A stretch of DNA of 32,000 nucleotides from Candidatus Baldrarchaeum yapensis (GCA_016840465.1 JAEOSH010000003.1:1-32000); one strand, 5' to 3'; positions 1-10,786 are shown, counted from the first letter of the stretch. Notes: generated by a model not told the origin, from the sequence alone. Translations and numbers: made by a program.

Positions 1-294
1 TTGGAGATCTGCATCCATTACTCCAAGCACTTTACCTCTAGCGATCTTGAATCCATCAACTACTGCGGATCCCAGCCCTCTTTTGTTAATTCGCCTGAGG
101 ACCCGGACGGGATATATTGAGGAGAGTTTTTCGGCTACTTCCCAGGTTCTGTCAGGGCTGTCATCGTCTACGATTATAACTTCGTAATCGATGGTGTGGA
201 GAGCGGAGTGGATCCTTGCTAGGAGTTTAGGGATGTTATCTCGCTCGTTATAGGTGGGTATTATGATCGAGAGAAGTGGAGGCTTGTCGTTCAT
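1..294 (-). CDS. Glycosyltransferase family 2, dolichol-phosphate mannosyltransferase (DPM1)-like; truncated by window edge
   Basis: Not in the ORF track. Manual translation from ATG at 294: MNDKPPLLSIIIPTYNERDNI...VIIVDDDSPDRTWEVAE...RGLGSAVVDGFKIARGKVLGVMDADLQ. Contains the PTYNE, VDDxSPD and DADLQ motifs typical of DPM1-like GT2. Confidence 0.9.
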   Translation of the reverse strand, partial: MNDKPPLLSIIIPTYNERDNIPKLLARIHSALHTIDYEVIIVDDDSPDRTWEVAEKLSSIYPVRVLRRINKRGLGSAVVDGFKIARGKVLGVMDADLQ

Positions 295-443
295 GTGATA
301 TCCTCTCACGCTGGAGTGTGAATATATGTGTTTTTTCTCTACAAAAAGTTTCTGGGAGGCGGATAGAGTATATTAGTAAGTTTTATTAATTGCGTGTGGT
401 CAGAGGAATTGCGACTAGGAGAACAGGTATTAGGGTGTTTTTT

Positions 444-551
444 ATGGGACACCTGTGGGGCGTAAAGGCGAAGCGACACGGGATGCGAAGGAAGTGGTTG
501 AAGAAACGTAGGAAGAGGTTGAAGAGGCAACTGAGAAGAAAACAACAATAA
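444..551 (+). CDS. rpl41e: Ribosomal protein eL41 (L41e / eS32)
   Basis: Manual translation MGHLWGVKAKRHGMRRKWLKKRRKRLKRQLRRKQQ*. The MRxKWxKKRxxRLKR core is the L41e signature. SD-like GGGTG lies 6 nt upstream of ATG 444. An alternative start at ATG 483 would give 22 aa. Confidence 0.82.
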   Translation: MGHLWGVKAKRHGMRRKWLKKRRKRLKRQLRRKQQ

Positions 552-859
552 CGGCACCAGTCGTTATTATCACGCGCGTGCTGAACAGCGGATGTGCGTC
601 TTCCATTTTCTACACGAGTTTGCGTATTTGATGCTACAATTACAGCGTATTAATTTTAATTTAGTGGTGTGCATAATTTAGATTGGGTGCATGTGGTTTC
701 CAGCAATCTACTGATTTCGCGGGTGCGGCCCTCAGTTGTGAGATCTGCGTTATGTGAGGTGATATAAAAGCGTTATCTTTAGAAGCGGATAATGATATTA
801 AAGAACTGTGGTTAAGGGGTGAGATACTTAGGAAGTTATGATATGCTTCGAGAGGGACG

Positions 860-3800
860 GTGCAACCATTGTCAAGTGCTATAAGACGGGTTTTCGAACT
901 TGCAAATGAGGTTTTAGACAAATTATCAGTTCCGGCGGGATTTGAGGAGAGCATGCAGCGTCTATTGGACACATCGGTGAGAATATCGAAACTCAGGGAG
1001 GAATTGAAAAGCACATCTGCGTTGCGTAGGCGGCGGAGGAAGGAACTTGAAAAAAATATAAGGGATTTCGAGGAAAACGCAGAGGATCTTGCAAGACACT
1101 TACTCGATGAGAGTGAGCGGATAATAATTTCAGAGGTAAATGAACTGAAGGCGTTTGCCGGGAAGTTTATTGATGTGTTGAGCGAGGGGTCAAAAAGGGC
1201 AATCCAAGAATTATCGGAAAGGCCGCCCATTGGAGATCTTGAAATGAGGGCGGAGCAGGATCTACGAAATCTAAGGGCACTGTATAATGCTTATAACCTT
1301 GTCAAGAATGATATTAAGACGTGGATATCGAAGAATAGGGATTTTCTCAGCGATGAGGTCCACCTTGTGAGGGAATTAAGTGAAATATTGTCGCTGGGGC
1401 ATGATGTTAGCGAGGAGGCCGTAAACCGCCTAAAGGGGTTAATCGAAGAATTGGACAAATCATCGAAAATAGATATTGCAACGTTGGAAAGCGTTGGGAG
1501 CGATGCGCGAAAAATAATAGATGAGTTAAAGAGGAGGATATCAAACTTCGCAAGAGCGATACGCCAAGAGTTGACTTCATGGAACGATAAAATAAGTGAG
1601 ATATCCTCTAAGATCGGTGCAGATGGATTAAGAGTCCCTCCTCATCCTCAACTTGTTGCGAATAGTCCAGATACGTATTCCGATATTGGCTCGTATCTCA
1701 GAGACGCGTTGTCTGACGCGAGAGCCCTAAGTAGGTACGAATCGGAGCTTAAGAGGATAATACTGGACAGAATATTATCGATACATAAGAGGAACAGAGT
1801 TCTCTACGAAACCTTCAGGAAGTATGTTGAAGTGGAGAGTCTAAAGCTATCGTACACCTTAAAGGAGCCTCCTGGGCCGGATTCGAGGCTAGATGAACTC
1901 TATGCGGTATTTGAGGGCTTAAGGGGTGAGGAGGAGTACCTTTCGAAGGTGGGTGCACGTGCCTTCAGTAGCCTGAAGAGCGAGTTGCAGTCGAAAATAT
2001 TAAGATTATCCACACAAATGAATCTCGCGCGTGAGCACGACGTGGAAATTCCTGATGAAATATCAACGAGACTGGAAACGCTATCAGCACATTTGGAAAG
2101 GGTGAAGGATGTAGAGGATATACTTACGCTTGAGAAGGAAATATCTCTCGTTGAAGGCGGTCTCAGAGATGCTGTTAGGAATTACGCTTTGGAGGAAAGA
2201 GGACGACTACTCTCGATGATATCAGGAATTCCGTCTCTTGCCGAACCTCCCGAGATAACGGGAACGACGGTCGAGGAATTCATAAGAGGACTTCACTCCC
2301 TGAGAAGGTGGGCTAGTGATGCAATTCATACGCTGAAAATGGAGATCGAGGGAATAATTGCTGAGATGAGGAGAGGTCTCGATACTCTGAAGGGAACAGA
2401 GTGGTACGACGAGGAGGTTGAGAGAGAGGTTAATTCTCTGACGGCGCATTTGGAGGAGATAAAGAGTTTCGAGGACGCCGTTGAAACGTATCGGAGGGCG
2501 CGTAGTTTATTGAAGAATGCAAGTGAGAAGCTTTTGATGATAATAGATTCGATGAGGAGGGACTTCCTTGAGGTTCTGAAGATAGCCGAAGAATTATCAG
2601 CGGAGATGCCGATAACGGTGGTGGTTCCTTCGATAACCGAGATAAAGGCGTCATATTCGGAAATTGCGAAAATGATAATAGATCTGAGCAAGAAGGTTGA
2701 GCAAAGGGACAAGGTTCTAAGGGATACTCTTATAGAGAACCTGAACAGGATTAGAGACAAAATAGAGGGGGTTCCACAAAGGTACTTTGAATTCTTCAAG
2801 CCATTACTTGAGGTAATTGACGATTGCATTAAGAAACTATCGCAGGCAAAGACGGTAATAGAAATCCGGGAGCTCTATACGAGAACGATAAAGGATCTTT
2901 CTCGTGCGTTGCAGGAAAGCTTTTCTGCAATGAAGTCGAACGTACTATTGAAAGTCAGAATGGTATGTTTGAAGTTGAGAAACCCGCCGGATCTCAGTGA
3001 AAGTTTCGAGGCGATTAATAGGACGTCCGTTGAGCAGTGGGAGTTGCCGTCAGCGGTTTACGAGATCGATACCATTTATAGGAAGAAAATACTGCCCGTG
3101 CTTAGGGATCGCGTGATATCCGAGGCCGAGAAGTATGTCAAAATGTTGGAAGGGCTCAAGGCTTACGGGATAGATGTTCACGAGTTTCTGGTATCGATAA
3201 ATGAAACTCTGAGGAGCGTTAAAGAAAAGGAGATGATAGATGCGCAAGATTTGAGCAAGGCATGCGAGAAAATAAATAAGATAGTCACTGATAAGAAACT
3301 CCGTTCGGTGATAACGGAGTGGGCGAAATCAATGGTATCCGCACTCGAGAGATCACATCCATACATTTCTGAGTATGAGGAGGTAAGCCCGGAGTTCGCA
3401 CACAGGTTTGCAGACGCCATATCTGAAATAAGGCATCAGGTTAACATGTTCGACTCGATGGACATGGAGAGGATATCGGAGGTCGTGTCAGAGATTAATG
3501 ATTTTTGGAACGTGACCCGTAGCTTCATATTAGAAATAGAGGAGCGCAAATCCAAAGAGTTGGAGGAAGAGTTACGTAAGATGCCGTATTATGACACAGT
3601 AACTGGAGTTTATAATGCCAATAGGAAGATATTTGATGAGAAGATTTTCCCGCTGTCAAAGATCCAGGAGATAAAGGAAAAGATAAGGGAAACACAGGGT
3701 CCCGAAGTTCTCGAGTTGATAAGGGAGAAGAGGGAATTAGAGGAGGAATGGGGCAAGAAGGTTCCGGAAATAATTACATGGCATAAGGCAGTGAGAGTTT

Positions 3801-3949
3801 TTCTTTCCGGTGTTGGCATACTCGATAGTGAGGAGGTAAAGGAGCGTCGCATGCAAGAAATATTTGAGAAGATAGATAGAATATTTAAGAGGGAGGATGT
3901 GCGGACGTATCTCAAGCTTGCGATCCGCACGCTCCTAGGAGGTAGATAA
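860..3949 (+). CDS. Large all-helical coiled-coil/helical-repeat protein (1029 aa), function unknown
   Basis: Long ORF with a GTG start. E/K/R/L/I-rich amphipathic helices broken by short Pro linkers. No P-loop, transmembrane segment or signal peptide seen. Stop is 2 nt before the tubulin-family gene. Confidence 0.85.
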   Translation: MQPLSSAIRRVFELANEVLDKLSVPAGFEESMQRLLDTSVRISKLREELKSTSALRRRRRKELEKNIRDFEENAEDLARHLLDESERIIISEVNELKAFAGKFIDVLSEGSKRAIQELSERPPIGDLEMRAEQDLRNLRALYNAYNLVKNDIKTWISKNRDFLSDEVHLVRELSEILSLGHDVSEEAVNRLKGLIEELDKSSKIDIATLESVGSDARKIIDELKRRISNFARAIRQELTSWNDKISEISSKIGADGLRVPPHPQLVANSPDTYSDIGSYLRDALSDARALSRYESELKRIILDRILSIHKRNRVLYETFRKYVEVESLKLSYTLKEPPGPDSRLDELYAVFEGLRGEEEYLSKVGARAFSSLKSELQSKILRLSTQMNLAREHDVEIPDEISTRLETLSAHLERVKDVEDILTLEKEISLVEGGLRDAVRNYALEERGRLLSMISGIPSLAEPPEITGTTVEEFIRGLHSLRRWASDAIHTLKMEIEGIIAEMRRGLDTLKGTEWYDEEVEREVNSLTAHLEEIKSFEDAVETYRRARSLLKNASEKLLMIIDSMRRDFLEVLKIAEELSAEMPITVVVPSITEIKASYSEIAKMIIDLSKKVEQRDKVLRDTLIENLNRIRDKIEGVPQRYFEFFKPLLEVIDDCIKKLSQAKTVIEIRELYTRTIKDLSRALQESFSAMKSNVLLKVRMVCLKLRNPPDLSESFEAINRTSVEQWELPSAVYEIDTIYRKKILPVLRDRVISEAEKYVKMLEGLKAYGIDVHEFLVSINETLRSVKEKEMIDAQDLSKACEKINKIVTDKKLRSVITEWAKSMVSALERSHPYISEYEEVSPEFAHRFADAISEIRHQVNMFDSMDMERISEVVSEINDFWNVTRSFILEIEERKSKELEEELRKMPYYDTVTGVYNANRKIFDEKIFPLSKIQEIKEKIRETQGPEVLELIREKRELEEEWGKKVPEIITWHKAVRVFLSGVGILDSEEVKERRMQEIFEKIDRIFKREDVRTYLKLAIRTLLGGR

Positions 3950-3951
3950 AG

Positions 3952-5331
3952 TTGGAGGAAATGGAAGAAAAGGTTCCGGCCTCTAGTGTTTTCCTGCTCG
4001 GAGTTGGAGAATGTGGGGGGAACCTCCTCGGTGAATATATAAACGCGGAGAGAGAAAGGGGGAGAATGACGCGGGTTTCTGGATACTTGTTGCTCAACAC
4101 GAACCAGATGGATGTCATCAAGGCACGGGAGCGGTATCACATCCCCCCGGAGAACACGTTGATATTCGGCGATACGCCGATGGGGGTCGGAGGAAGATTC
4201 ATGGAGGCGTATAGTCTCGTTGACACGTGGTGGGATACGATAGCAGATCAAATTTCGAGTTTGGGCGGTGATGTTGCAAACACGTTCATAATTCTCACCT
4301 CCACGGGAGGGGGGACCGGTTGCGGGGCGACACCAGCGCTCATCAGGCAGATCAAGGAGACGTTTGGGAAAACCCGTAGGGTATACGTTTATGTTGCCGC
4401 GGTTCTCCCATTCGAGGGACAGAGTAGTGAGGCTCTTAACACAACTTGGTTACTGTACAAACTCATGCAGGAGCCCACATCGTCCAAGGAGATTGCCGAT
4501 CTCGTAATTCTCCTCTCGAATAGAACTATGCTTAGAAGAAGGTTGCAACACGACCGAAGGCTCGTGATGGACATCATCGGAGCGAGTCTGGGAGTCGATA
4601 CGAGTGATTATCAGCAGATAGAGAAGGTGTTAAAGTACACCGGAGAGGTAAGTAGCAAGGCTCTCGAGAAAACTTTCATAGACATAGTGAATCCGCTCAT
4701 TGTGCAAACACTGATAAAAATGCTTGAACTCTCAACATATGCTCCTGACAAGAACATATTCCCGACAATAGACTTTGCAGATTTAGCAAACAGATTAGAC
4801 ATAATAACGGTTCCCGCTCTCTTTACAGATATTCCATATGAAGCCCTCAAGGACGAGCGTGGAAATGTCGACATGGATTCTCTATCGGCGTTCTTGGAGG
4901 AGGTGGTGAACGTCACCGTGAGGGCGTACAGTTTGGTCGACATTGGGGACGAGCCCTCGGCGTCCAGCGCCTTCTACATACTTAGTGGACCACAACAGTT
5001 TACGGACGTACACCTAGATATTCCAATAAAACGGGCATTAGGGTCTTACTTAGCAGAAGGTGCGTCGATAACTCCTGTTTTTGTACAGTACAAGCAAAGG
5101 AACATGCCTATGGATCTACTCATACTGCTAGGATTACCAAAGCTCGAGGAGATCAGAGAAATTATGCGTGAGGCCTACCAACTCATATCATTGCACAGCG
5201 GGAGTAAGGTCAAGGAACGGTGGTTCCTTAAGAGCAAGGGGGTCTCTAGGGAAGTCTTCATAGATGCTTTGAGAGAACTCATGGAGTTGTTCGACGTTGA
5301 GGAATCAGAGATCGAACTTTCAGGAACATGA
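3952..5331 (+). CDS. Divergent FtsZ/tubulin-superfamily GTPase
   Basis: T1 GVGECGGN, NTN, T3 GVGG, T4 signature GGGTGCG (4306-4326), VLPFE, T7 IDFADL (D at 4771). TTG start has GGAGGT 7 nt upstream; ATG 3961 is an alternative start. Confidence 0.92.
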   Translation: MEEMEEKVPASSVFLLGVGECGGNLLGEYINAERERGRMTRVSGYLLLNTNQMDVIKARERYHIPPENTLIFGDTPMGVGGRFMEAYSLVDTWWDTIADQISSLGGDVANTFIILTSTGGGTGCGATPALIRQIKETFGKTRRVYVYVAAVLPFEGQSSEALNTTWLLYKLMQEPTSSKEIADLVILLSNRTMLRRRLQHDRRLVMDIIGASLGVDTSDYQQIEKVLKYTGEVSSKALEKTFIDIVNPLIVQTLIKMLELSTYAPDKNIFPTIDFADLANRLDIITVPALFTDIPYEALKDERGNVDMDSLSAFLEEVVNVTVRAYSLVDIGDEPSASSAFYILSGPQQFTDVHLDIPIKRALGSYLAEGASITPVFVQYKQRNMPMDLLILLGLPKLEEIREIMREAYQLISLHSGSKVKERWFLKSKGVSREVFIDALRELMELFDVEESEIELSGT

Positions 5332-5368
5332 GCGGGAAAGGGAGATATTAACCCTTTTTATTAGCTAT

Positions 5369-6178
5369 ATGACTTCTATTCTTGAGTTACAGGAGCGAAT
5401 AGTGGCTTTGATATCCAGTATAGTGGAAAAGCCGGAGGAAAATGAACAAATAAAGGAACTTGCAAACTCGATTCTGAAGGAAATATCCGATTTGAGGGAG
5501 AAAGTAAGCAAAGAATTTGAGAGAATTAGACCATCAGAGAGAGAGGAAAGAGAAGAGATTGCAGAAGAAAAGGTCGTGGAAGAGGATCCTTGGGGCATTA
5601 TATTATCAACTGAGGCTCTGATTAGGAAAGTATCTAGCACCCATGATGTTCTCCTCCCAAAGGCCCTATTATGCGTGATAAAAGAGCTGCATGCTGCTCA
5701 AACACCGGAAGATTTGCGAAATAATGTCGTGAGGCATGTCTGTATAGAGTTAAGGGACATAATTCATGAAATGCTGACTCGTGAGCCATACGTCGGTTTG
5801 CTAAAGGCCATAAAGGGAAAAGATGAGGAGGAACTTCTGGAGGAGGATGTTTCGAATCTTAGAAGGTTGGTGGAAGGGTTCCTGAGGGGTATCAGTGACA
5901 GATTCAAGGATCCTGAAAGCGGATGGAAAAACAGTCTGCTTGCCGCGCGCTTTTCCTTAGATGTTTTTGATTGGGGTGGTCCTTCTGTAGAAAAACGCTT
6001 TTTGCATCTGTTTTATCAGCGTATGAAGAACCTATTGCAAAGGGTGGAAAAAACAGAAAACATAAGAGATAAGATTTTAAACGCCGAACTTGCGATTTTC
6101 TTAGGAAATCTTGTGAGATATTTTATTGATTCTAAGCGATTTAGGGAAAGGCTGGAGAGGATGAAGCGCGCCTTATAG
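5369..6178 (+). CDS. Hypothetical all-alpha protein (about 269 aa)
   Basis: The ORF track starts at TTG 5297, overlapping the upstream gene by 35 nt; ATG 5369 avoids the overlap. N-terminal helical hairpin, acidic/basic linker, helical C-terminal domain. No recognised motif. Confidence 0.72.
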   Translation: MTSILELQERIVALISSIVEKPEENEQIKELANSILKEISDLREKVSKEFERIRPSEREEREEIAEEKVVEEDPWGIILSTEALIRKVSSTHDVLLPKALLCVIKELHAAQTPEDLRNNVVRHVCIELRDIIHEMLTREPYVGLLKAIKGKDEEELLEEDVSNLRRLVEGFLRGISDRFKDPESGWKNSLLAARFSLDVFDWGGPSVEKRFLHLFYQRMKNLLQRVEKTENIRDKILNAELAIFLGNLVRYFIDSKRFRERLERMKRAL

Positions 6179-6180
6179 CG

Positions 6181-7464
6181 TTATAATTTCTCCAAATATC
6201 GTACTATGGATCCGTACGGTATTTCGACCTTATTGCCCCTTCTTGTGTAGGAAAATACTGGAACTCCGACCTTGTTGAACAAATCGGCGTACTTGTTGTT
6301 AACGAGTAAGATTATAGGAACTCCGTTCTTTCTTAGAAGGTCTATTTGAGCAGTTTTCTTTGAAAGATATTCCCTCCGCCAGAAGCCTATTATTTCGACG
6401 AAAACTCTTTTGTTGTCTCTTTGGAGGAGAAAGTCAGGCACTATCATCATACCTTCGAAAACGAGGGGCATCGGTTCACGTATGATCGTCCATCCCTTGG
6501 GTTTATTTGCGTGGAATGCCCAATAGAACTGTTTCTCTACTTGGCTGTCGAACATGCTTTCTTTCACCGCATACTTTTCAGGCACTTTGATGTAAGGAAG
6601 GGTTCTCCTATCTGCCTCATAGAAGTACTGCTTCTTGCCTATCACGAGATCCATGTGAAGTCTTAAGATATTAGCTTTCATCTTTTCACACACCGAAAAG
6701 GTGGAGAACAGCGCATAACTTAATGGCTTTCCAAATCGTGTGGCCCTTCCGAATAATTCTCGTGGACCGTAATACTTTATTTCGACCGCCTGACCACGCA
6801 CGAAGAGGTCACACAACACCGAGTACCTTTTTGCCAGCTTAATTGCAATTCTTGCAATTCTTCCCAACTCCTTAGATTCCACCGCTAGTGATATGCTTTT
6901 GGAATTTGACACCAAGGTCTCGATAGCTTCAAAATTATAAACACCAATGAGGTCGAGTACCGTCGGCTTTTTCTCATCTCGAGTAAGTACTAGGTTTGTA
7001 TCCTCATCTGCCCAGAGAATTTTCTCCAAGTCCTCAATAGGTATCCCCATTTCCTCGGAAAATTCTTTTAACGCGGTTGTACGCATGTGAGATGGCACGA
7101 ACCCCCCATACCGCTTGTTTATCCATTCAAATAACAACTGTCGTAGGTCTGCCGGACTATCGATTTTTTTGCTCTTAAGCACGGCTATCGTTTCTTGTCT
7201 TACATTTTTTAAAATATCAGGTTTTTCGAGTCTGTAAATTTTCAATAGCGCGTGAATGATCCCCCTCCCTATTCTCCTATCATCGAATAGATTCTCAATC
7301 AACTGAAGCGGGACCTCCTCTATTCTTTTTCCCAGATTTTCTTCGAATATCTGTATGGCGAGTGACAACTCGTTTTCAAAACTCATATCGAGGAAAAACG
7401 GAAATATTTGCTTCTTGAAGGTCTTATAACACAAATTCGAAAGTCCGAGCCCCATCTTATGCAT
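6181..7464 (-). CDS. bax1: Bax1 / DUF790 nuclease, partner of XPB
   Basis: C-terminal FDSQVEKQF...REP...VPDFLL...FVEIIGFW resembles the DUF790 PD-(D/E)xK-type nuclease motif. Overlaps the xpb stop by 8 nt. Confidence 0.85.
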   Translation of the reverse strand: MHKMGLGLSNLCYKTFKKQIFPFFLDMSFENELSLAIQIFEENLGKRIEEVPLQLIENLFDDRRIGRGIIHALLKIYRLEKPDILKNVRQETIAVLKSKKIDSPADLRQLLFEWINKRYGGFVPSHMRTTALKEFSEEMGIPIEDLEKILWADEDTNLVLTRDEKKPTVLDLIGVYNFEAIETLVSNSKSISLAVESKELGRIARIAIKLAKRYSVLCDLFVRGQAVEIKYYGPRELFGRATRFGKPLSYALFSTFSVCEKMKANILRLHMDLVIGKKQYFYEADRRTLPYIKVPEKYAVKESMFDSQVEKQFYWAFHANKPKGWTIIREPMPLVFEGMMIVPDFLLQRDNKRVFVEIIGFWRREYLSKKTAQIDLLRKNGVPIILLVNNKYADLFNKVGVPVFSYTRRGNKVEIPYGSIVRYLEKL

Positions 7465-9076
7465 CCTCTAACTCTGTCTTCCTTCTACGCGAGAGAGGGA
7501 CCTCTATAGTCCTTTTTGTGATAATTTCTATAAGAATGGCCTTCTCATCTTTTGGACGAAGTAATCTTCCAAGCCTTTGTATGTACTGCCGTTCGCTTCC
7601 GGTGCCGCTGACAATTATCCCAACGGAGGCGTCCGGAACATCTACGCCTTCATCTAGAACCTCTCCCGTGACTATCTTTGTTATCCTTCCCTCTCTGAAC
7701 GCTTCTAATATTTTCCTCCTCTCCTCGGCACTCGTCTTATGGGTTATCTTGGGGATGAGGAAAAGTTTTGAAATTTTATCGACAAAACCTGTATACCTCG
7801 AAAATATTATCACTTTCTTATCCTTATACCTGCTCAACAACTTTTCTAATACTCTTATCTTATTTTTGGCACCAAGCGCTATTTGTCGTGCCCTCTCACG
7901 TGCAATTAGGACATCATGGGCTATGGGGTCCGATCTGCTGAGTTTTACAACCTCCTTAAATGCCTCTTTCGGATCCTTATTTATACAATGAAGGTCGACA
8001 TACCTTCTATATTTCTCCATAAGGGTGTTGTACTCTATTGCCTCCTCAGGTGTAAGATCAACATATATTCTTCTTATTTCGTAATCTGCAAGATATCCGT
8101 CTTCAACAAGCTCTCTCGTATCCGATTTGTATACTGTTGGCCCTATCAGTATGTCTAAATCCTTGTGGAGTTCATCGGCTCTTTTTGGTGTCGCGGTAAG
8201 CCCCATTCTTGCCGTACATGGCATGCATTCGGCAATTAACCGGTAACTTGGTGATGCGAGATGGTGAACCTCATCAGCTATTAGAAGGCTGAACTTATCG
8301 GCGAGTGCATGAACGTTCAGGTACGCGCTATCATAAGTTATCACAGTAACGTCTTTGATCTCCTTCTTTCCGCCCCCGAAAATCCCGACCTCCTCATCGG
8401 GAACATCAAGCATTGTGCATATTTTATCTTTCCATTGCTGGAGTAAATCTATTGTGGGAACTACTATGAGCGACTTCAACTTCAGTTCGTGAATTGCCCA
8501 GAGTGCAATGTAAGTTTTTCCAGCTCCAGTTGGTAAAACTATCACACCTCGCTTATCGTTAGCCAGCCAGGCGTTATACGCTTCCTTTTGAAATGGTCTT
8601 AATTCAAAAAGAGGGGATGTTTCGAACGATATTTTCTGTTCGGTTTCAAAGGTGATGATGGGCTTGATGCCGTACTTCTCGAAAACTTTCACTATTTGAC
8701 TTAAGTACATAGGCTTTGCCCGGAAGAGTTTGTCCTGTCGATCCCAGACAACAAGATTCTCGGCTTCAGGAGGTACCGTTGAAATTCCGTCTATGACAAG
8801 ATCGGACCCCTTAAGGGAGATTACCGCCGCTGGCTTTTTCTCTCTAAGCAGATTTAATAAATCTGCGTTCAAACTTATGTTATGCTTGGAAAGAATCCTG
8901 ATAATTTCACTTGGCTTTTTCTCAAGGCACTTTTCTAGGTTAAGACGGTAAATTCCTCTTTTTCTTGAGGTATCAAACCTAATGTAATCTGCGATGGTGA
9001 GAAGTTCCTCGAAGTCCTCTCTAGACATCCACTTTACGATCTCAAACCGTAGATTCGATAGTGAGATGGCTCTCAT
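7457..9076 (-). CDS. xpb: XPB/Rad25 SF2 DNA helicase
   Basis: LRPFQ (Q motif), LPTGAGKT, DEVHH, GLTATP, LDEGVDVP, QRLGRLLR; adjacent to bax1. Confidence 0.9.
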   Translation of the reverse strand: MRAISLSNLRFEIVKWMSREDFEELLTIADYIRFDTSRKRGIYRLNLEKCLEKKPSEIIRILSKHNISLNADLLNLLREKKPAAVISLKGSDLVIDGISTVPPEAENLVVWDRQDKLFRAKPMYLSQIVKVFEKYGIKPIITFETEQKISFETSPLFELRPFQKEAYNAWLANDKRGVIVLPTGAGKTYIALWAIHELKLKSLIVVPTIDLLQQWKDKICTMLDVPDEEVGIFGGGKKEIKDVTVITYDSAYLNVHALADKFSLLIADEVHHLASPSYRLIAECMPCTARMGLTATPKRADELHKDLDILIGPTVYKSDTRELVEDGYLADYEIRRIYVDLTPEEAIEYNTLMEKYRRYVDLHCINKDPKEAFKEVVKLSRSDPIAHDVLIARERARQIALGAKNKIRVLEKLLSRYKDKKVIIFSRYTGFVDKISKLFLIPKITHKTSAEERRKILEAFREGRITKIVTGEVLDEGVDVPDASVGIIVSGTGSERQYIQRLGRLLRPKDEKAILIEIITKRTIEVPLSRRRKTELEDA

Positions 9077-9103: not shown

Positions 9104-10786
9104 TCAATGCGATATCTTCATGATCTTGTCACGTATTTGCTCATCGGAAACTTTCTTAAAGAGGGGTACTGGCTCTCTTATTACGTGGCCTGGCTTTATG
9201 TCTATCTTTCCTGCATCATCCCATTTTCCTCTTTCGATGTTTAGCAGTTCAAGAATGCGCGTCGCAGATCTGGGGATGAACGGCCATAAGAGGATCCCAA
9301 GACATTTCACCAAGTGTACTGCGACGAATAGTACTGTTCCCGCGGATCTCTTATCTTTCTTTATTAGCTTCCATGGTTCCTTTGCGTTCAGATACCTGTT
9401 TCCGTCTCTTGCAAGATCTAGTATTTTCTCTAGCGCCGCTTTTAGTTCATAGCGCTCCATAAGGGAACCAATTTCCTGAGGCGAGGATTTTATCTTCTCC
9501 AAGAGTTCTTTATCGAGATTATTAAACTCTCCGGGCTCTGGCACTTTTCCGTCGAAGTAACGGTAGATGAGCATCAAAACTCTGTGTATGAAGTTCCCCA
9601 AGTTATCTACAAGTTCGCTATTTATTTTGTCTCGGAATTCTTCCCAATTCCAGTCCGTATCCTCAATTGAGTAAGGTGTGATGAGCGTTAGGTAAAATCT
9701 TGCATAATCGGCAGGGAAGCTCTCCAGAAACTCCTCTACACCTATGTATATTCCTCTGCTTTTGGAGAACTTCTTCTTATGTAATGTCAAGAAACCTCTA
9801 GTTGGTATTGCCGATGGAAGGTTGAAATTCATTTTGGTTCCATAGAGCATCGCCGGCCAGAAGAGGTAATGATGATACACGATATCCTTCCCGATGTGGT
9901 GGATTATTTTAGTCTCGGGGTCTTTCCACCATCTTTCCCAGTTGTCATTGTGGTCCTTACACCATTTAACGGTCGCTGCAATGTATCCAATTGGGGCATC
10001 GAACCACACGTAAACTTTCTTCCTTTTACCGCTCTCTGTGATCGCATCGTCGAATGGCATGTCAAAGCCCCAATAGTCCTCCTCCCTCGTGATATCCCAA
10101 TCCTTCAATCCCTCCTCTATCCAGTTCAGCACGTAATTCGTAACCTGAGGCTGGAATTCCTCATTGTTTTGAATCCATTCCTTTAAGAAGTCGGCAAAAG
10201 CCGAAAGTTTGAATATGAAGTGTTCACTTTCCTTTAATACTGGCATACTGCCACATATTGTGCATCTAGGATTCTTAAGATCGCCGGGTTCGAACGTCTT
10301 TCCGCAGCTATCACAATAATCGCTGTACTGATCCTTTGCTCCGCAGACGGGACATTCTCCCCTCACGTATCTATCGGGTAGGTACCTCTTACAGTTCTCA
10401 CAGTAGTACTGCTTTACAGTCTTCTTGTATATATATCCGTTTTCTCTCAAAGCTTTAAGGAACATGTGAGTGAGTTCCTCGTTTTCAGGGCTATGAGTCC
10501 TATGGAAAACATCGAACTCTATGTCGAGTGCGCGGAAAAGCTTCTTATCCAACTCATGGTATTTAAGTACAAAGTTCTCGGGGTCCATACCAGCCTTCTC
10601 GGCTTCCACTTGAATAGGAGTTCCATGTTCGTCAGTTGCGCAGACGTAGAGAGTTTCAACTCCCTTAGCTTTATAGTATCTTGCAAGGATGTCTGCAGGC
10701 AGATAAGTGCTCTTCATATGCCCGAGGTGAGGTTCTCCGTTTGCATATATCAGCGCCGCGGTTATTAATACGCGCTTAAACGCTAT
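9104..10786 (-). CDS. metG: Methionine--tRNA ligase, short form without C-terminal tRNA-binding domain
   Basis: The frame extends 23 codons upstream of the track start: (I)AFKRVLITAALIYANGEPHLGHMKSTY, containing the HIGH motif HLGH. Four CxxC knuckle pairs, YVWFDAPIGY, KFSKSRG. No ATG/GTG/TTG upstream of HLGH, so the start is placed at ATA 10786 or GCG 10783. Confidence 0.95.
   Translation of the reverse strand: MAFKRVLITAALIYANGEPHLGHMKSTYLPADILARYYKAKGVETLYVCATDEHGTPIQVEAEKAGMDPENFVLKYHELDKKLFRALDIEFDVFHRTHSPENEELTHMFLKALRENGYIYKKTVKQYYCENCKRYLPDRYVRGECPVCGAKDQYSDYCDSCGKTFEPGDLKNPRCTICGSMPVLKESEHFIFKLSAFADFLKEWIQNNEEFQPQVTNYVLNWIEEGLKDWDITREEDYWGFDMPFDDAITESGKRKKVYVWFDAPIGYIAATVKWCKDHNDNWERWWKDPETKIIHHIGKDIVYHHYLFWPAMLYGTKMNFNLPSAIPTRGFLTLHKKKFSKSRGIYIGVEEFLESFPADYARFYLTLITPYSIEDTDWNWEEFRDKINSELVDNLGNFIHRVLMLIYRYFDGKVPEPGEFNNLDKELLEKIKSSPQEIGSLMERYELKAALEKILDLARDGNRYLNAKEPWKLIKKDKRSAGTVLFVAVHLVKCLGILLWPFIPRSATRILELLNIERGKWDDAGKIDIKPGHVIREPVPLFKKVSDEQIRDKIMKISH

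Follow-up and report, generated by a model that had tools for sequence, protein, structure and literature searches.

A co-inherited three-gene operon of Asgard archaea built around a CetZ-like tubulin-superfamily GTPase

When a divergent tubulin-superfamily GTPase is found between two helical proteins of no known family, do the three belong together, and if so, could they be parts of a cytoskeleton? The question is raised by a stretch of 32,000 nucleotides (nt) from Candidatus Baldrarchaeum yapensis (GCA_016840465.1 JAEOSH010000003.1:1-32000), which we call the window, meaning the whole stretch that was analysed; the genome it comes from measures 2.27 Mb in 100 contigs and is 96% complete. Three genes are in question: partA, encoding an all-helical rod protein, a gene for a GTPase of the CetZ-like clade known as Asg.Tub, and partC, encoding a smaller helical protein. 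A preliminary description, made from the sequence, had taken them for an undescribed cytoskeletal module. The analysis presented here confirms that the three genes form a real, conserved module, and it suggests that the operon probably encodes a cytoskeletal filament system.

Co-inheritance of the three genes

The operon consists of the following features.

860..3949, plus strand: partA (P0001), open reading frame (ORF) call with a GTG start, 1029 amino acids (aa), all-helical rod protein
3938..3943, plus strand: GGAGGT, a Shine-Dalgarno-like hexamer read from the sequence, in the final partA codons and 8 nt ahead of the TTG at 3952
3952..5331, plus strand: Asg.Tub GTPase (P0002), TTG start, 459 aa, CetZ-like tubulin-superfamily GTPase
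5297..6178, plus strand: partC (P0003), TTG start, 293 aa, helical partner

The same gene set was sought in 20 regions from eight Asgard genome families, in which all ORFs were scanned with hidden Markov models of the three protein families. The order partA-GTPase-partC on one strand was found in 26 of 29 loci. Neighbouring genes overlap or are separated by a few bases, about 70 nt at most, apart from a single 377-nt gap ahead of partC. Directly upstream of the GTPase lie the partA orthologues (865-1393 aa) and directly downstream the partC orthologues (277-388 aa), both without a Pfam match, and contigs carrying such neighbours come from Thor-, Hod-, Baldr- and other Asgard assemblies. The partA protein of the window matches a Thorarchaeal protein over 760 residues (BLASTP, 3e-28) and a Hodarchaeales protein over the C-terminal 190 residues only (BLAST, 1e-9), and a further orthologue matches the partA profile at 5.7e-50. 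For partC the corresponding values are 5e-22 for the Thorarchaeal protein and 2e-6 for the Hodarchaeales protein, with a profile match at 3.9e-25.

Each of the three genes was also searched for in whole genomes, 400 Asgard genomes altogether, with the window's genome standing as a ninth family (f1) that is included in the totals.

Family f2: GTPase 4/4, partA 4/4, partC 4/4
Family f3: GTPase 1/1, partA 1/1, partC 1/1
Family f9: GTPase 21/22, partA 22/22, partC 20/22
Family f10: GTPase 2/2, partA 2/2, partC 1/2
Family f12: GTPase 15/19, partA 16/19, partC 16/19
Family f28: GTPase 5/5, partA 5/5, partC 5/5
Family f30: GTPase 1/1, partA 1/1, partC 1/1
Family f31: GTPase 76/86, partA 77/86, partC 74/86
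All 400 genomes: GTPase 126, partA 129, partC 123 (about a third)

The three genes are confined to the same eight families and f1, and there they are near-universal, while the other 23 Asgard families have none of the three (among them families with 0/135, 0/31, 0/14 and 0/12 genomes). In the tree described below, f9 groups with the Hodarchaeales-labelled locus and f31 with the Thorarchaeota-labelled loci. Synteny and the single phyletic pattern across the 400 genomes both bear out the earlier claim of a dedicated, co-conserved gene set. A second GTPase copy is found in 8 of the 22 f9 (Hodarchaeales-like) genomes (copies examined at L048:6989-11749 and L050:3555-8326); partC is single-copy, also in these genomes.

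The junctions within the operon are tight. The partA stop codon, TAA, occupies 3947-3949, and the TTG at 3952 begins 2 nt beyond it; the GTPase could also start from the in-frame ATG at 3961. The GTPase ends with TGA at 5329-5331, giving a 35-nt overlap with partC if the latter starts from the TTG at 5297, and the next in-frame ATG of partC is at 5369. The three ORFs were thus recovered on the plus strand where the preliminary description had put them, and its reading of a 2-nt gap with GGAGGT in the last codons of the 1029-aa gene agrees with the sequence.

The GTPase and its clade

P0002 matches PF00091 with 49.3 bits against a cut-off of 33, its sole family above threshold, and PF00091 is matched by 22 of 22 family members. 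On another contig the window's genome carries its canonical FtsZ genes, FtsZ1 and FtsZ2, which also match PF00091 strongly (170.7 and 151.1 bits), so that P0002 is a third paralogue. Two of its motifs lie as follows.

4306..4326, plus strand: T4 tubulin signature GGGTGCG, residues 119-125, invariant in 22 members
4762..4782, plus strand: T7 loop PTIDFAD, residues 271-277, with P271, D274 and D277 invariant in 22 members

The same 22 members share a conserved T1 motif, GxGE(C)GxN, whose cysteine is present in at least 90%, and T2 (N49-T50), T3 (G78, G80, G81 and F83) and the PF..Q core of T5 are invariant. We take PTIDFAD to correspond to the NxDFAD motif of FtsZ, by motif and not by solved structure. 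The T7 acidic residues of FtsZ and tubulin act only across the longitudinal polymer interface, and because those of Asg.Tub are invariant, they make the main sequence argument for polymerisation. Judged from these motifs, Asg.Tub most likely polymerises head-to-tail in a GTP-dependent manner.

The fold is nearest to that of CetZ. A profile of the family retrieves CetZ2 (4b46, 2.4e-12) first and CetZ (3zid, 1.8e-8) second from the PDB, followed by beta-tubulin (2e-7), gamma-tubulin and OdinTubulin, and FtsZ does not appear in the top 60 matches. The ESM Atlas model of P0002 (predicted template-modelling score, pTM, 0.84) has a two-domain fold (GTPase and C-terminal activating domains, with core helix H7), and its nearest structures are CetZ clusters. 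Over residues 11-423 these reach a template-modelling (TM) score of 0.70 by query and 0.81-0.82 by target; next come TubZ-like and FtsZ clusters, the three together ranging over TM 0.61-0.70 by query. Helix H7 (FIDIVNPL...) is set off from the H6 region (LSNRTML) by about 30 extra residues of variable sequence. CetZ_C, Tubulin_C and FtsZ_C give a signal in 0/22 family members even at E<=1, and neither TubZ_C nor TubZ-like_C was detected in any member.

All close relatives of P0002 are from Asgard archaea, at 65% identity for a Baldrarchaeota-labelled protein, about 43% for Thorarchaeota and about 40% for Hodarchaeales, and all are annotated as 'hypothetical'; the Baldrarchaeota-labelled assembly belongs to the same order as the window's genome. 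The family is very small and stands apart: a search of 1.84 billion representative proteins gave full-length matches in two clusters, plus P0046 as a distant relative (28% identity, E 3e-22), and the further matches, at E 1e-9 or weaker, cover the N-terminal domain only and in many cases carry CetZ_C. A quick maximum-likelihood tree was built from 68 sequences (LG+C20, with support by the Shimodaira-Hasegawa-like approximate likelihood ratio test, SH-aLRT), a set outside which the Asg.Tub accessions of PMC9871819 lie. In it 29 Asg.Tub sequences form one clade (SH-aLRT 99), which includes the Thorarchaeota- and Hodarchaeales-labelled loci and is separate from the CetZ_C-positive group (SH-aLRT 96) and from the Asgard true tubulins (SH-aLRT 100). 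The clade is joined to the tubulin side with a support of just 90 and with long branches, for which reason we do not rely on this join. The branching inside the clade tracks the genome families, which suggests mainly vertical descent.

Three orphans join Asg.Tub (SH-aLRT 99): a Bathyarchaeia-type tubulin-like protein of about 610 aa, P0046 and P0054. The first (L076:7001-10536) is followed after 2 nt by a 566-aa gene of no known family. Between smc-scpA and P0046 (L012:954-10149), which is about 2.8 kb farther downstream, there are four other genes, and P0046 is followed by an overlapping 262-aa gene.

The clade itself has been named before. Because the C-terminal half of P0002 agrees block for block, compared by eye, with the published Asg.Tub-C alignment (common blocks VNPL, FPT.D.AD, LD..VP, SGP, LLGLPK..E, LHSG and WF.(R/K)SKG), P0002 belongs to Asg.Tub, the CetZ-like clade of Asgardarchaeota named by Santana-Molina, Saz-Navarro and Devos 2023 (PMC9871819). 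That supplementary alignment holds two Heimdallarchaeia (LC-3, B3-JM-08) and two Thorarchaeales sequences, and the published trees put Asg.Tub outside canonical CetZ, with an unstable position between CetZ and tubulins (PMC9871819). The clade was treated there by phylogeny only, from four sequences and without proposed partners or function, and its neighbours were called unknown and unrelated genes, mostly with coiled-coil regions (PMC9871819). Later literature uses Asg.Tub as a phylogenetic outgroup only, and our literature search found no functional or structural study of Asg.Tub and no partner analysis. Since the GTPase clade is already published, the module is not entirely undescribed as first claimed; the part of the claim that stands is the three-gene system, which is absent from the literature searched. 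Also new against that literature are the strictly shared inheritance of the genes, both partner families and the interaction predicted at the lateral face.

Other identities of the GTPase were examined and rejected. It is not CetZ proper (CetZ_C, PF21011, in 0/22 members; a separate clade), nor a bona fide tubulin (no PF03953 in the members or in the window's genome; tubulins separate with SH-aLRT 100), nor FtsZ (TIGR00065 at 14.2 bits against a cut-off of 295.2, no FtsZ_C, and two other FtsZ genes in the genome), nor FtsZl1/FtsZl2 of the Tubulin_2 family (PF13809 at 17.6 bits against a cut-off of 27). TubZ, and with it a TubZRC operon, was rejected on partners without a match to a DNA-binding family and on the lack of iterons. 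The tree and these scans agree with the preliminary description, which saw here neither the TubR and centromere repeats of TubZ systems nor the vWA/GTPase partners usual in FtsZl1/FtsZl2 loci.

A filament could still move chromosomal DNA through adaptors in the manner of TubZRC (type III partition), and there is some ground for the idea, since the structural neighbours include TubZ-like proteins of phages and plasmids (TM 0.61-0.63) and the distant relative P0046 is positioned near smc-scpA. We regard DNA segregation of this type as very unlikely. Neither partner shows a DNA-binding domain, iteron arrays resembling a centromere are missing around the operon (none in 1-1000 or 5300-6400), the C-terminal TubZ signatures are undetected in all members, and the locus is chromosomal, mostly single-copy and vertically inherited in varying housekeeping contexts.

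True tubulins (PF03953) were seen in 8 of the 400 Asgard genomes (L064-L075; G046, G137, G297-G303), all from families without the operon, and these genomes are too few to judge whether true tubulins and the Asg.Tub operon exclude each other.

The two partners and the surroundings of the operon

No Pfam or NCBIfam family matches partC above the cut-off. Its AlphaFold2 model, made from an 8-sequence alignment, has a mean predicted local distance difference test (pLDDT) score of 83.5. In it a helical hairpin at the N-terminus (residues 1-77) is joined by a disordered acidic linker to a globular helical domain (about residues 95-293, pLDDT >90). The contact with the GTPase is predicted between this domain and one face of Asg.Tub.

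5579..6175, plus strand: partC conserved helical domain, predicted GTPase binder, residues 95-293
4105..4263, plus strand: predicted partC docking face on the GTPase, residues 52-104 (H2, H2-S3 loop, S3 and H3)

The complex of GTPase and partC was predicted in three runs from genome-matched alignments of 22 rows, together with controls. The interaction score ipSAE was 0.70 (0.70, 0.73 and 0.68 in the runs) and that of the best control 0.01; the 0.70 mark is reached by 58 of 80 solved complexes and by 2 of 110 mismatched pairs, counts that hold only roughly here because our own alignments were used. The runs have at least 90% of their contacts in common, and the partner pLDDT is at least 78. 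On partC the predicted interface comprises residues 163-167, 224-241 and 290-293, in which P164, R234 and K290 are invariant in 22 sequences and F224 is kept in 86%. Conservation is 0.57 at the interface and 0.40 elsewhere, a difference matched by 31 of 20,000 random sets, or by 229 of 20,000 when the C-domain alone is considered. On the GTPase the interface residues are 52, 56, 66-76 and 92-104, with the secondary-structure elements assigned through the CetZ2 alignment. Searches of PDB folds found no solved complex resembling this one. The modelling supports direct binding of partC to the H2/H3 side face of the GTPase. It had been proposed at first that the giant helical protein is the partner of the polymer; a direct contact between the GTPase and a partner is indeed predicted, but the best-supported one is with partC.

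Because the predicted site extends as far as residues 73-76, beside the T3 loop, it is conceivable that partC caps or sequesters monomers, and the tight 1:1:1 linkage of the genes would suit a stoichiometric complex. The GTPase might then not polymerise, and act instead as the switch subunit of a stable heterotrimer with partA and partC that serves as a regulator or assembly factor. This seems quite unlikely to us: in non-polymerising relatives within the tubulin superfamily the T7 acidic residues tend to decay, whereas here both are invariant in 22/22 members, and the closest structural relatives are all filament formers.

Outside its own family partC resembles little. Foldseek gave nothing against the PDB at E<=0.001, VIA-align against the PDB matched only the generic N-terminal hairpin (Z up to 10.5) and barely covered the C-domain, and in the Atlas a shape search returned generic helices only and a feature search nothing. 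In the AlphaFold database the C-domain matched its own family and, weakly (E 2e-3 to 0.1), the C-termini of larger unnamed proteins, namely U1PAW8 (889-1092), A0A849PIB6 (420-615) and A0A2H9NDX8 (280-460), one of which is annotated as PKD-domain-containing. The partC domain might thus also exist fused to other architectures. Homology between partC and the C-domain of partA was undetected (hhalign E 0.25). The 566-aa and 262-aa genes next to the orphan tubulin-like genes were tried as members of the partC family and rejected (E 7e-3 and 6e-4, probability 6% and 28%, respectively), with the weak similarity of the 262-aa gene (E 6e-4) falling on the partC interface region.

For partA, too, no Pfam or NCBIfam family was above the cut-off. 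The AlphaFold2 model from a 7-sequence alignment is all-helix with a mean pLDDT of 82 and a pTM of 0.38, a value to be expected for an elongated protein, and two regions can be told apart in it.

1889..3388, plus strand: partA repeats, about four tandem long-short-long helix units of about 128 aa, residues 344-843
3389..3946, plus strand: partA conserved C-terminal helical domain, residues 844-1029

The helix unit recurs in the model at about residues 344, 471, 599 and 729. When the segments 344-470, 471-598, 599-728 and 729-843 were compared with hhalign from a 28-sequence alignment, they aligned in register, with a probability of 76-77% at E 2e-5 for four of the six pairs and two weaker pairs (26% and 5%). 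The all-helix model and these segments are in line with the first reading of the 1029-aa protein as a giant helical-repeat protein. A 1140-aa orthologue owes its extra length to one block of about 250 residues inside the repeat region, which suggests that the number of repeats may vary, and only the Baldr lineage has the insertion at residues 76-225. Conservation is highest at about residues 900-1029, and all seven sequences of the alignment share W964, W974, H975, I1005, D1013 and Y1017. The orthologues were gathered through synteny. A word-index search with residues 300-1029 returned only the protein itself, as charged helical words saturate the index.

The rod shape and the presence of FtsZ1 and FtsZ2 in the genome could point to an accessory role in division, through co-polymerisation with these two proteins or their regulation, with partA as a spectrin-type regulator like EzrA, itself a helical-repeat rod. 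Of the explanations weighed here we give this one the slimmest chance. Most Asgard families do not have the operon, among them those with 0/135 and 0/31 genomes, and neither ftsZ nor sepF is linked to it in any sampled locus. Pfam, Foldseek and VIA found no spectrin or EzrA match for partA, whose model is overlong for a domain-level fold search. Foldseek against the PDB had no significant hit (the PRC1 rod scored probability 0.75, E 0.11), VIA-align gave a generic match to the first 123 residues only, the AlphaFold database returned generic helical-repeat rods such as the Ebh GA-module proteins, and an Atlas feature search with the C-domain gave nothing. Moreover, partA has no transmembrane anchor: no transmembrane-like segment was found in partA, the GTPase or partC (maximum Kyte-Doolittle means over 19 residues of 1.05-1.37).

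The surroundings of the operon in the window are those of a housekeeping region.

1-309, minus strand: GT2 fragment, upstream flank
483-551, plus strand: eL41-like ORF, 22 codons, highly basic, MRRKWLKKRRKRLKRQLRRKQQ
661-1230, minus strand: 189-aa ORF that overlaps the partA start, without a family match
6181-7464, convergent: DUF790/Bax1, downstream flank
7457-9076, convergent: XPB, downstream flank
9104-10717, minus strand (convergent): methionyl-tRNA synthetase (MetRS, metG), downstream flank, ATG at 10717, 537 aa, Pfam match from profile position 21

ORFs and family matches thus give the flanks that had been described, eL41 upstream and bax1-xpb-metG convergent downstream. About 300 nt of non-coding sequence separate the eL41-like ORF from partA and presumably hold the operon promoter; a promoter and terminator scan with bacterial models gave nothing above chance. 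The 189-aa ORF on the minus strand is probably not a gene, and a tRNA search of the window found none. Beyond the three genes, the context varies between classes, with chromosomal, housekeeping surroundings throughout.

In the Thorarchaeal family, and there only, a gene for a WD40 beta-propeller protein of 626-656 aa lies just upstream of partA and divergent from it; the window does not have it.

L004:3185-5065, divergent from partA: WD40 gene, Thorarchaeal locus
L006:3080-5050, divergent from partA: WD40 gene, Thorarchaeal locus
L010:3067-4986, divergent from partA: WD40 gene, Thorarchaeal locus

Makarova et al. 2024 (PMC10936438) tied a non-canonical CetZ-like protein of Haloarchaea to Halo_adaptin loci that encode proteins with WD40 and Ig domains. 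The operon could by analogy serve in membrane remodelling or trafficking, the CetZ-like GTPase acting with adaptor-like partners in the formation of vesicles or protrusions, as has been proposed for those ESCRT-like loci, and both the divergent Thorarchaeal WD40 gene and the weak likeness of the partC C-domain to the C-termini of larger proteins, one with a PKD domain, would suit such a role. We find it unlikely, because the WD40 neighbour is restricted to one genome family, genes for ESCRT, Vps4 or membrane proteins are not linked in the sampled loci, the three proteins have no hydrophobic segment of the transmembrane kind, and the structural matches of partC are weak and unnamed.

A candidate filament system among its known relatives

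On balance we think it likely that the operon encodes a dedicated, Asgard-specific filament system of the tubulin superfamily, with two co-inherited accessory proteins and a place separate from division. As a chromosomal three-gene operon, it would be self-contained. Asg.Tub, the third paralogue beside FtsZ1 and FtsZ2, would supply the polymer through its predicted CetZ-like two-domain fold and its intact GTP-binding and T7 activating motifs, and the C-domain of partC is predicted to dock on the H2/H2-S3/H3 side face at about 1:1. Lateral contacts in tubulin are made on this face, where the M-loop of the adjacent protofilament meets the H2-S3 loop and H3. For this reason partC may decorate the side of the filament and modulate or bridge its lateral association, while the helical hairpin at the N-terminus of partC might project outward. 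From its synteny and co-occurrence with the GTPase, partA would most likely be a scaffold, spacer or cross-linker of the polymer. The cellular role would probably lie in cell shape, protrusions or internal organisation and not in division.

Several points weigh against such a system. The gene set is not always whole: the Hodarchaeales-like locus L011 has the GTPase and partC without an adjacent partA, the second, paralogous copies at L048 and L050 are partA-GTPase pairs without partC, and the distant relative at L012 is also an exception to the order. The score of the complex is the model's own confidence, with a rough calibration, and the GTPase side of the interface is not enriched in conserved residues (0.62, compared with 0.73 in the rest of the domain). 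The tie of partA to the GTPase is one of gene neighbourhood, the argument for polymerisation is one of motifs, and a membrane-binding segment or anchor was not found in any of the three proteins.

A more far-reaching version of the filament system is that it represents an ancient third tubulin-superfamily cytoskeleton, with proteins of its own resembling microtubule-associated proteins (MAPs), in Thor-, Hod-, Baldr- and some Heimdall-type Asgard archaea. Here partC would be the binder of the lateral face and partA a spectrin-like rod of variable length. We offer this version tentatively and would sooner expect it to fail than to hold. If true, the logic of a filament with accessory proteins would be found, without any dependence on true tubulin, in those Asgard lineages that stand nearest to eukaryotes, and the system may underlie the unusual architecture of Asgard cells, such as their protrusions and internal organisation.

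Work on the Asgard cytoskeleton has so far dealt with actin, FtsZ1/2 and the rare true tubulins (OdinTubulin, AtubAB). The operon, in about 126 of 400 genomes, is far commoner than true tubulins, in 8 of 400, and its presence is near-universal both in the Thorarchaeota-labelled family and in the one grouping with the Hodarchaeales-labelled locus. With two dedicated, co-inherited partners it makes a set of three defined proteins open to expression and reconstitution. For partC there is a confident predicted binding site on the lateral-contact face of the tubulin fold, and the two new protein families, which have no known fold match, come with specific residues to mutate.

How does the operon compare with known systems? 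The Asg.Tub proteins of PMC9871819 are of the same family as P0002 and have coiled-coil neighbours too, but here the flanking genes turn out to belong to two conserved families in strict co-occurrence with the GTPase, one of them predicted to bind it. TubZRC is similar in that a tubulin-superfamily GTPase stands in a small operon with dedicated partners, whereas the present operon has no TubR-like protein or centromere repeats and is chromosomal and vertically inherited. EzrA, which works with FtsZ, is comparable as a long rod of helical bundles in series that is linked in function to a polymer of the tubulin family. The partA protein differs from it in its long-short-long repeat of about 128 aa and its lack of a membrane anchor, and our searches found no sequence or fold match between the two.

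The closest system by profile (2.4e-12) and predicted fold is CetZ (PDB 4b46, 4b45, 3zid), with which the GTPase motifs are alike. CetZ proteins are said, after work by Duggin et al. in 2015, to be archaeal tubulin-like proteins of cell shape, and a role outside division is presumed for both CetZ and Asg.Tub. Unlike CetZ, Asg.Tub lacks CetZ_C, and it has an extra stretch of about 30 residues between H6 and H7, a family-specific C-terminus and a clade of its own, and CetZ genes are not known to be coupled to genes of the partA or partC type. Tubulins with their associated proteins (BtubAB-BtubC, AtubAB, and MAPs such as PRC1) differ from Asg.Tub by Tubulin_C and a separate clade, and the match between PRC1 and partA (E 0.11) is not significant. 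Like the system proposed here, they combine a tubulin-fold polymer with helical accessory proteins, and it is their lateral-contact face in the microtubule, H2-S3/H3, that is the predicted site of partC on Asg.Tub.

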